Origin: Escherichia phage WPEC1
Sequence record: PV659873.1
Strand: one strand, 5' to 3'
Length of the DNA stretch: 64,000 nucleotides
Each line of letters begins with the position of its first letter. Within the stretch, counting starts at the first letter, position 1. Shown in pieces: positions 62,958 through 63,821 of this stretch. A program made the translations under genes and the position numbers. The notes below the pieces were generated by a model. That model searched no databases. It worked only from the letters and a program-made list of their open reading frames with translations, and was not told the origin of the DNA.

Positions 62958-63821
62958 GTTCATCTCAAATTTATTATCGCATAAGCCTTCTTTACAATAA
63001 TCATCCTCTGCACATATAGGACATTCTACAATCCAGTAAACCTGACGACCTAATCTATCTACTCTATCGCTACGATAATATTTACGCTCTACATTATCAG
63101 GACAAGCTTTTATAAAATCTTCAACATGTTGCTTATCCTCCATTGTATTCCTTTGTTTCGTCATTTCTCTTTGACAACCGTAGCATCCAGTTCCTTGTTT
63201 AGCACTGTTTACAGTGGTAGTGCACCACTGACCATGAACCTTACACTCACAAATCAACTTAGTGCGGGAACCGTTCCACGGTTCCACATAGCCTCTAACA
63301 ATCCAGGGTTTTTCTTTATAGGCTTCTTCTACTTCTTCTTTATGTTTCTCCCACGCAATCGATGTTCTTTCTCTGTTTGCTTCTCCCATACACTTCCTGC
63401 ATCCACTCCCGTTTTTCGCAGAAGATATAGAAGTAGACCTCCACTCCCCATGTAAAGCACAACAACAAACCAGTTTAGTATTCCATCCTTTCCATTCTCC
63501 GTGCCATCCTATAACAGTCCAAGATTTACCTGCCTGATTGTAAGTGGTTTGCACTTCTTCTTTATGTTGCTCCCATGTTTTTGATTTGTTTATAGATACT
63601 GCTTTCTTTATAATCTCCCTACAGCATTTTGGACAACCCCTCCCTCGTTTAGCGGTATTTATGCTTGTTGTTTTCCATTCTCCGTGCAGAGCACAGATGC
63701 ATCTAAGTTTAGTTTTATTGCCGTTCCACGGCTCAATATAATCTACAACAGTCCAACACTTACCTTGATAAGCTTGTTTTATATCTGTTTTATATTGTTC
63801 CCAAGTAACTATTTTTGGCAC
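62727..63821 (-). CDS. Cys-rich protein with three ~65-aa internal repeats; 3' end replaced by repeat-B sequence
   Basis: Repeats W(E/T)Q(Y/H)K...TKLxCxCxxHG(E/Q)W..T...SAK.G.GC..C three times; native-looking sequence stops near 62958; GTG start. Confidence 0.45.
   Translation of the reverse strand: MPKIVTWEQYKTDIKQAYQGKCWTVVDYIEPWNGNKTKLRCICALHGEWKTTSINTAKRGRGCPKCCREIIKKAVSINKSKTWEQHKEEVQTTYNQAGKSWTVIGWHGEWKGWNTKLVCCCALHGEWRSTSISSAKNGSGCRKCMGEANRERTSIAWEKHKEEVEEAYKEKPWIVRGYVEPWNGSRTKLICECKVHGQWCTTTVNSAKQGTGCYGCQREMTKQRNTMEDKQHVEDFIKACPDNVERKYYRSDRVDRLGRQVYWIVECPICAEDDYCKEGLCDNKFEMNQIKERRLIFPNVTLNFNTMINYQSSDHLSHFFTKHITSINQLVQPICKCKSMPNQRKEAHLSKCDAQLQHHDQLPE
62853..62984 (+). CDS. duplicated small ORF / 5' gene fragment, copy 2
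   Basis: Same RBS and first ~35 codons as copy 1, then reads into the partial repeat A. Confidence 0.3.
   Translation: MFSKEMREVIATLVVDHGVEVERHIWKDEPPFFDLVHLKFIIA
62958..63033. repeat. partial third copy of repeat A fused to repeat B
   Basis: 76 bp matching the 3' part of unit A; encodes WIVECPICAEDDYCKEGLCDNKFEM inside the Cys-rich gene. Confidence 0.85.

Follow-up and report, generated by a model that had tools for sequence, protein, structure and literature searches.

A truncated homing-endonuclease-type gene headed by CapR-type modules in an apparent concatenation of assembly-graph edges from Escherichia phage WPEC1

The stretch of DNA analyzed here (hereafter designated the window) comprises 64,000 nucleotides of Escherichia phage WPEC1 (PV659873.1), and its sequence is that of a phAPEC8-like coliphage of the genus Phapecoctavirus. 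Close to the end of the window, nucleotides 62727..63821 of the minus strand specify a 364-amino acid ORF that begins with a GTG start codon and whose N-terminal 226 amino acids are made up of three tandem repeats designated R1, R2, and R3. The features of this locus are as follows.

62727..62958, minus strand: apparently spurious tail of the ORF (aa 288-364 plus stop codon), antisense to an unrelated gene
62959..63821, minus strand: authentic 5′ part (codons 1-287 plus 2 nt) of a CapR/GIY-YIG endonuclease gene
62961..63053, minus strand: first half only of zinc unit 4 (aa 257-287; YWIVECPICAEDDYC...FEM)
63144..63359, minus strand: R3, CapR-type repeat 3 (aa 155-226), with putative zinc motif C191-x-C193-x19-C213-x-x-C216 at 63174-63251
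63363..63581, minus strand: R2, CapR-type repeat 2 (aa 81-153; best Pfam stretch of the ORF at aa 99-144), with putative zinc motif C119-x-C121-x19-C141-x-x-C144 at 63390-63467
63594..63809, minus strand: R1, CapR-type repeat 1 (aa 5-76; located by self-comparison and PF21817), with putative zinc motif C41-x-C43-x19-C63-x-x-C66 at 63624-63701
63888..63905: GC-rich, terminator-like hairpin between the ATPase gene and the endonuclease gene, annotated as 'terminator' in phage ASO2A
63911..63947, minus strand: final 37 nt of the upstream P-loop ATPase gene

A scan for promoters and terminators revealed nothing beyond the intergenic hairpin.

The original prediction described three consecutive cysteine-rich repeats of ~65 amino acids. 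Their number and arrangement were confirmed by pairwise comparison of R1, R2, and R3, which share 46-53% identity at the amino acid level and 56-61% at the DNA level (blastp E values of 1e-26 to 4e-31), but their measured length is 72-78 amino acids. Each repeat contains the motifs that had been proposed, in the form W-E-Q/K-x-K, T-K-L-x-C-x-C-x-x-H-G-E/Q-W, and S-A-K-x-G-x-G-C-x-x-C, the last two of which generate the pattern C-x-C-x19-C-x-x-C. Alignment revealed that R3 is the sole repeat of the three common to all homologues. In the AF2 model, the C-x-C knuckle is located at the end of a strand (E38-43) and the C-x-x-C knuckle (residues 63-66) opens a helix (H64-77); R2 was modeled with low confidence. 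As judged from secondary structure only, this arrangement suggests a treble-clef-like fold rather than a classical two-hairpin zinc ribbon. The description of the repeats as zinc-ribbon-like units holds in so far as they are of zinc-finger type (PF21817), although a classical ribbon seems less likely.

Although the family was not recognized in the original prediction, a profile search identified it as the CapR homology domain (Pfam PF21817), which matches the window ORF in four stretches (59.5 bits against a cut-off of 24.2; E = 3.8e-16) and a full-length relative in five (96 bits). The PHROGs search assigned the window protein to phrog_681, labeled 'endonuclease' (E = 8.5e-36); because the match covers profile positions 3-340 of 576, the window protein represents only the N-terminal part of this profile. 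A search of NCBIfam returned no match. The Pfam families DSRM_2 (E = 0.016), Clr5, and DUF3094 all scored below threshold and were rejected, and a profile search against PDB sequences yielded no more than sub-significant matches to ribosomal protein bL31, likewise a zinc protein with a C-x-C...C-x-x-C pattern (E = 0.028), which were not treated as homology.

CapR is a protein of PLE, a phage satellite of Vibrio cholerae, and its binding to operator DNA requires two conserved cysteine pairs, as revealed by electrophoretic mobility shift assays (EMSA) with a Cys-to-Ser mutant (C43/46/72/74S) (PMC8096241). Its ancestry lies in the N-terminal parts of phage ICP1 proteins that are putative homing endonucleases (PMC8096241). 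Homing endonuclease genes (HEGs) of the T5orf172 class regularly bear repeated zinc-finger modules of the CapR, DUF723, or DUF4397 type, the number of which is altered by recombination between repeats (PMC10448857). The window ORF exhibits two cysteine pairs with CapR-like spacing (~20-28 residues). The knuckle types of R1-R3 (C-x-C-x19-C-x-x-C) stand in swapped order relative to those of PLE CapR (C-x-x-C...C-x-C), unit 4 of the intact protein described below reads C-x-x-C-x28-C-x-C, and the first knuckle may be C...H among the aligned homologues. R1-R3 are thus previously described CapR zinc-finger DNA-binding modules that head a phage homing-endonuclease-type gene. The expectation that they bind nucleic acid is upheld by homology to PLE CapR, which indicates that they are most likely zinc-finger-type modules that bind DNA. 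Because such modules have already been described and the gene is cut by an apparent assembly artefact, we regard the finding as an ordinary one.

The original prediction described a cysteine-rich protein built from the three repeats. The repeat region is instead the front end of a 486-amino acid nuclease, the last 199 residues of which are missing from the window. Nucleotides 62959..63821 are identical to positions 2586-3448 of locus L001 in phage WPEC2 (100%) and 97% identical to gp171 of phage ESCO13; the same values hold for the entire block 62959-63947. WPEC2, WPEC4, and WPEC6 are each 100% identical to the window across the block and carry the intact gene, which in WPEC2 and ESCO13 is 1461 nt in length and encodes 486 amino acids. 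ORF residues 1-287 are identical to the WPEC2 version (the same as ASO2A UAW58367.1) and 97-98% identical to those of ESCO13 gp171 (YP_009786705.1; UniProt A0A1D7XFK1) and ZCKP1 (YP_009803487.1). RefSeq labels proteins at 98-100% identity 'endonuclease', UniProt labels them 'CapR homology domain-containing protein', and the protein is therefore already known as an annotated Phapecoctavirus endonuclease, of which the window holds a near-identical partial copy. The upstream P-loop ATPase neighbor and the intergenic hairpin are the same in the window and in the Phapecoctavirus endonuclease loci, whereas residues 288-486 of the endonuclease (second half of unit 4, unit 5, and the GIY-YIG domain) are replaced in the window by unrelated pieces.

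In the intact protein, the three repeats are followed by CapR unit 4 (C-P-x-C...C-R-C; best Pfam CapR stretch at aa 257-302), unit 5 (C-x-x-H-G...G-C-P-x-C), and a 120-amino acid C-terminal domain. The second knuckle of unit 4 (C-R-C) is lost at the junction in the window. A Foldseek search of the PDB with a model of the whole 486-amino acid protein yielded no match with E <= 0.001 (best E = 0.034; TM <= 0.10). Because several domains joined by flexible linkers make a poor query for such a search, the C-terminal domain was modeled alone. The resulting model (pLDDT 91, pTM 0.84) adopts the beta-beta-alpha-beta-alpha arrangement of the GIY-YIG core fold and matches 69 viral proteins in BFVD at E <= 1e-3, including proteins labeled homing endonuclease, GIY-YIG, T5 Orf172, and MUG113. 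At the profile level, PF10544 (T5orf172) scored 13.8 bits on the closest relative, below the cut-off of 20; 11 of 12 C-terminal domains matched T5orf172 at E <= 1, all sub-threshold (best E = 0.0022), and five of the 12 matched MUG113 (PF13455). Residues Y9, K25/G27, R35, E65, and E93 are invariant in all 12 aligned C-terminal domains and could include the counterparts of the catalytic Tyr, Arg, and Glu of GIY-YIG enzymes (Y6, R27, and E75 in I-TevI). Because CapR units are joined to a domain with this fold and these matches, the intact protein appears to combine a zinc-finger array with a predicted GIY-YIG-fold nuclease, as do members of the T5orf172 HEG class.

Authentic gene sequence ends at 62958/62959, exactly at the lower bound of 62958 given in the original prediction, and all sequence below 62959 derives from other places. 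The last 77 residues of the ORF are read from the antisense strand of a homologue of ESCO13 gp177, the 5′ end of which is present twice. Compared with ESCO13, the window runs through a TelA region to 62255, five pieces designated P1-P5 (155, 155, 83, 155, and 155 nt), and the 989-nt block 62959-63947, and then jumps at 63948. The pieces and the associated junctions are as follows.

20370..20528: 159-nt piece identical to WPEC2 L001 3498-3656, originating between the ATPase and endonuclease genes
62256..62410: P1, 155 nt, corresponding to WPEC2 L001 2508-2662 with one mismatch at position 78
62411..62565: P2, 155 nt, corresponding to WPEC2 L001 2503-2657 (endonuclease gene) with one mismatch at position 78
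62566..62648: P3, 83 nt, corresponding to ESCO13 60216-60134, ~75 kb off in the canonical genome
62649..62803: P4, 155 nt, from the P5 locus shifted by 2 nt, with mismatches to WPEC2 at positions 76 and 78
62804..62958: P5, 155 nt, identical to WPEC2 L001 6035-5881, inverted, with 0 mismatches
63947/63948: junction after which the last 53 nt (63948-64000) correspond to ESCO13 73174-73121, reversed, adjoining the breakpoint of the 20525 junction

P1-P5 have three sources: the endonuclease gene, a locus situated 75 kb from it, and a gene 3 kb upstream, the last in inverted orientation. The mismatch to WPEC2 falls at position 78, the center of a 77 + 1 + 77 arrangement, in three of the four 155-nt pieces, and P5 and its twin P4 disagree at positions 76 and 78. 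The block 62959-63947 opens with the final 77 nt of P1, and the last 77 nt of the block (63871-63947) recur as an exact copy at 20370-20446, the first 77 nt of the 159-nt piece, which should be the graph edge due after the block. The junction at 20372/20525 links ESCO13 position 46158 to 73149 and skips ~27 kb containing genes for DNA ligase, a tRNA cluster, terminase, portal, and capsid. Residues 317-486 of the intact protein are encoded nowhere in the window. The 364-amino acid chimeric product is absent from a collection of 15 billion proteins, whereas many contigs in that collection encode the intact protein, whose N-terminus is identical.

To judge from these pieces, the window is a concatenation of edges of a k = 77 de Bruijn graph built from a slightly mixed population, including SNP 'bubble' edges of 2k + 1 = 155 nt. 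The SNP-centered pieces of that length, the exact 77-nt overlaps, the similar patchwork at the end of the sister record WPEC2, the missing residues, the antisense nature of the tail, and the absence of the product elsewhere lead us to conclude that the truncation, the tail of the ORF, and the 'tandem repeats' next to it are very probably assembly artefacts. These tandem repeats, which occupy 62256-62958 with periods of 160 and 157, resolve into the four 155-nt pieces and one 83-nt piece from three distant loci. The original prediction had remarked that WIVECPICAEDDYC recurs within them. The DNA encoding this segment is indeed present in three copies (63001-63030, 62536-62565, and 62376-62405), but the recurrence appears to reflect the 77-nt overlaps of concatenated graph edges and not biology. 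The tandem repeats were also considered as a mobile mini-element or as scars of homing recombination, and both readings were rejected because the 155-nt pieces are SNP-centered and overlap their true genomic neighbor by exactly 77 nt. If the window consists of concatenated graph edges, ORFs, repeats, and gene order near its junctions should not be interpreted, a caution that extends to the tandem repeats at 62256-62958.

Several observations were made elsewhere in the window and in a related record. The minus-strand gene at 61145-62206 encodes a 353-amino acid TelA-like protein (PF05816; E = 2.7e-33) that belongs to the tellurite-resistance-like set of Phapecoctavirus (TelA/TerC/TerD-type); its first 17 codons, as annotated in ESCO13, are removed by the junction at 62255/62256. 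Around position 11110, the window lacks the counterpart of ESCO13 27833-36561 (~8.7 kb; dTDP-rhamnose/nucleotide-sugar genes gp073-gp089), which could reflect a natural deletion or a further assembly break. Segments 34803-35621, 42906-43850, and 47300-48033 have no megablast match to ESCO13, and the tail-fibre region (35621-42906) is only 92% identical to it; these differences are probably ordinary variation in host-range modules. The end of the deposited 'complete genome' of WPEC2 (PV691511.1, 154250-158500; L008) is a patchwork of distant loci in both orientations, with pieces of 79-194 nt and ~1.25 kb that are each annotated with small hypothetical CDSs. This public record looks like an instance of the concatenation problem encountered in the WPEC1 window.

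Homologues of the endonuclease are rare, numbering only 26 among 5.8 billion protein clusters. Units 4 and 5 and the predicted GIY-YIG-fold domain are common to all 22 close homologues, which vary in containing one, two, or three leading repeats (~332, 402, and 486 amino acids). In every Phapecoctavirus record inspected, such a gene fills the slot that separates the P-loop ATPase gene from a gene encoding 121 amino acids, and no empty site, that is, a slot without an endonuclease gene, was seen in these records. The 486-amino acid allele occupies the slot in 23 of 70 records; most of the remainder carry other alleles between flanks that are 98% identical. For two alleles examined, flank identity reaches the ORF borders, at positions 2004 and 3508/3533 of WPEC2 locus L001. 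The ORFs of phages tuntematon (332 aa) and ukendt (402 aa) share 33-35% protein identity with the 486-amino acid allele, and blastn detected no similarity between either allele and the 486-amino acid allele. Comparison of L001 2005-3507 with loci L006 and L007 revealed that alleles are swapped precisely between the 98%-identical flanks. As far as sequence comparison can tell, this cassette-like exchange fits the pattern of nuclease genes at the boundaries of genetic exchange. Among the wider set of sequences, a 669-amino acid protein (P0002) encoded by one ORF on a 22-kb metagenomic contig resembles two complete CapR-plus-GIY-YIG endonucleases arranged head to tail; it represents either tandem HEGs fused after loss of a stop codon or a genuine double nuclease.

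The combination of CapR modules with a T5orf172/GIY-YIG domain was described between 2021 and 2023. The T5orf172 HEGs of ICP1 (such as gp165 and gp174; PMC10448857) have the same architecture, with N-terminal CapR modules and a C-terminal domain of the GIY-YIG superfamily. As in Phapecoctavirus, the copy number of their repeats differs between alleles and the genes lie where identity between related phages breaks down; homing is putative for the coliphage endonucleases. The two systems differ in lineage, ICP1 being a Vibrio phage and Phapecoctavirus belonging to the Stephanstirmvirinae of E. coli. They differ further in that the Phapecoctavirus C-terminal domain has diverged below the Pfam T5orf172 threshold and that the first knuckle of R1-R3 is C-x-C instead of C-x-x-C. 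PLE CapR (Netter et al. 2021, PMC8096241) belongs to the same zinc-finger DNA-binding family (PF21817) and lacks a nuclease, as the window ORF appears to do at face value. However, PLE CapR became a repressor through natural domestication and its operator has been mapped, whereas the window form, with three and a half modules, is likely an artefact. A similar modular logic applies to the GIY-YIG homing endonucleases of T4-like phages, I-TevI among them, which are free-standing or intron-encoded selfish genes of lytic coliphages: the catalytic domain is tethered to a DNA-binding region, and this region contains a small zinc finger of the Cys4 type.

One alternative is that the truncation of the window ORF is real. 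A natural nuclease-less derivative, with three and a half CapR modules and a junk tail, would act through DNA binding only, for example as a repressor like PLE CapR or as a protector of the target site. All 364 codons are open, the native start and upstream region are kept, domesticated nuclease-free CapR proteins exist (PMC8096241), and recombination between HEG repeats is known to yield duplications (Barth et al., PMC10448857). Against these points stand the composition of the junction from SNP-centered pieces of exactly 155 nt (2x77+1) that overlap by 77 nt and stem from three loci far apart, the halving of zinc unit 4, and the antisense relationship of the tail to another gene. Moreover, a second such junction in the window skips the terminase-to-capsid region, the product occurs nowhere else among the 15 billion proteins, and three phages identical over the block possess the intact gene. 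We therefore consider a natural derivative highly unlikely. Rated lower still is the chance that some members of the phage stock have truly undergone the rearrangement at 62958/62959 and produce a nuclease-less array of three CapR fingers from native signals. If it were real, the array could be a dominant-negative 'immunity' factor or a repressor acting on the endonuclease's own target site, and would thus be a lytic-phage counterpart of the satellite protein CapR. The notion of a stand-alone, cysteine-rich protein whose three zinc-ribbon units would bind nucleic acid, perhaps RNA, draws on the C-x-C...C-x-x-C spacing and on the non-significant profile matches to bL31 and the dsRNA-binding domain DSRM_2. 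It is barely credible in view of the significant match to a described DNA-binding family, the continuation of all 22 close homologues into a nuclease domain, and the restriction of the nuclease-less form to this window.

A separate question is whether the intact gene is a selfish HEG or has become a fixed, domesticated nuclease or regulator of Phapecoctavirus, for instance a nuclease directed against satellites or competitors in the manner of ICP1 Odn, or a transcription factor whose GIY-YIG domain is inactive. The presence of some allele in every record inspected, with no empty site, favors domestication, and Barth et al. (PMC10448857) caution that sequence by itself does not allow homing to be inferred and that co-option of HEG domains is frequent. 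On the other hand, proteins of the sampled allele classes are only 33-35% identical, while the flanking DNA retains 98% identity as far as the borders of the gene. Such cassette-wise replacement of the ORF argues against domestication because it is the pattern produced by mobile or exchanging HEG alleles, and the candidate catalytic residues are invariant in the 12 aligned C-terminal domains. Domestication is accordingly judged unlikely, though it is the alternative to which we give the most weight.

The reading we prefer, and hold with considerable confidence, joins a truncated homing-endonuclease-type gene to a concatenation of graph edges. Nucleotides 62959-63821 represent codons 1-287 of a gene whose product is a free-standing protein of homing-endonuclease type, belonging to the T5orf172/GIY-YIG class. 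The five CapR-type modules of the complete 486-amino acid protein, three closely similar and two more divergent, would form a modular DNA-binding arm by which the C-terminal GIY-YIG-fold nuclease is brought to an extended DNA target. One zinc ion per module would be coordinated by C-x-C (or C/H) and C-x-x-C; together, the modules would read an extended DNA site and the GIY-YIG domain would cut nearby. Co-infecting relatives that carry another allele would be cleaved, and repair from the donor genome would spread this allele, a putative homing role with which the exchange of the ORF as a cassette, flanked by 98%-identical sequence, is consistent. The copy in the window would have been cut after codon 287, with loss of the nuclease, by edge concatenation and not by a natural rearrangement.

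The biological gain from this locus is small, and its practical value lies in the warning about concatenated assemblies and in the allele series. The Phapecoctavirus alleles with one, two, or three leading CapR modules provide a handy natural series in which the number of modules may be related to target specificity.
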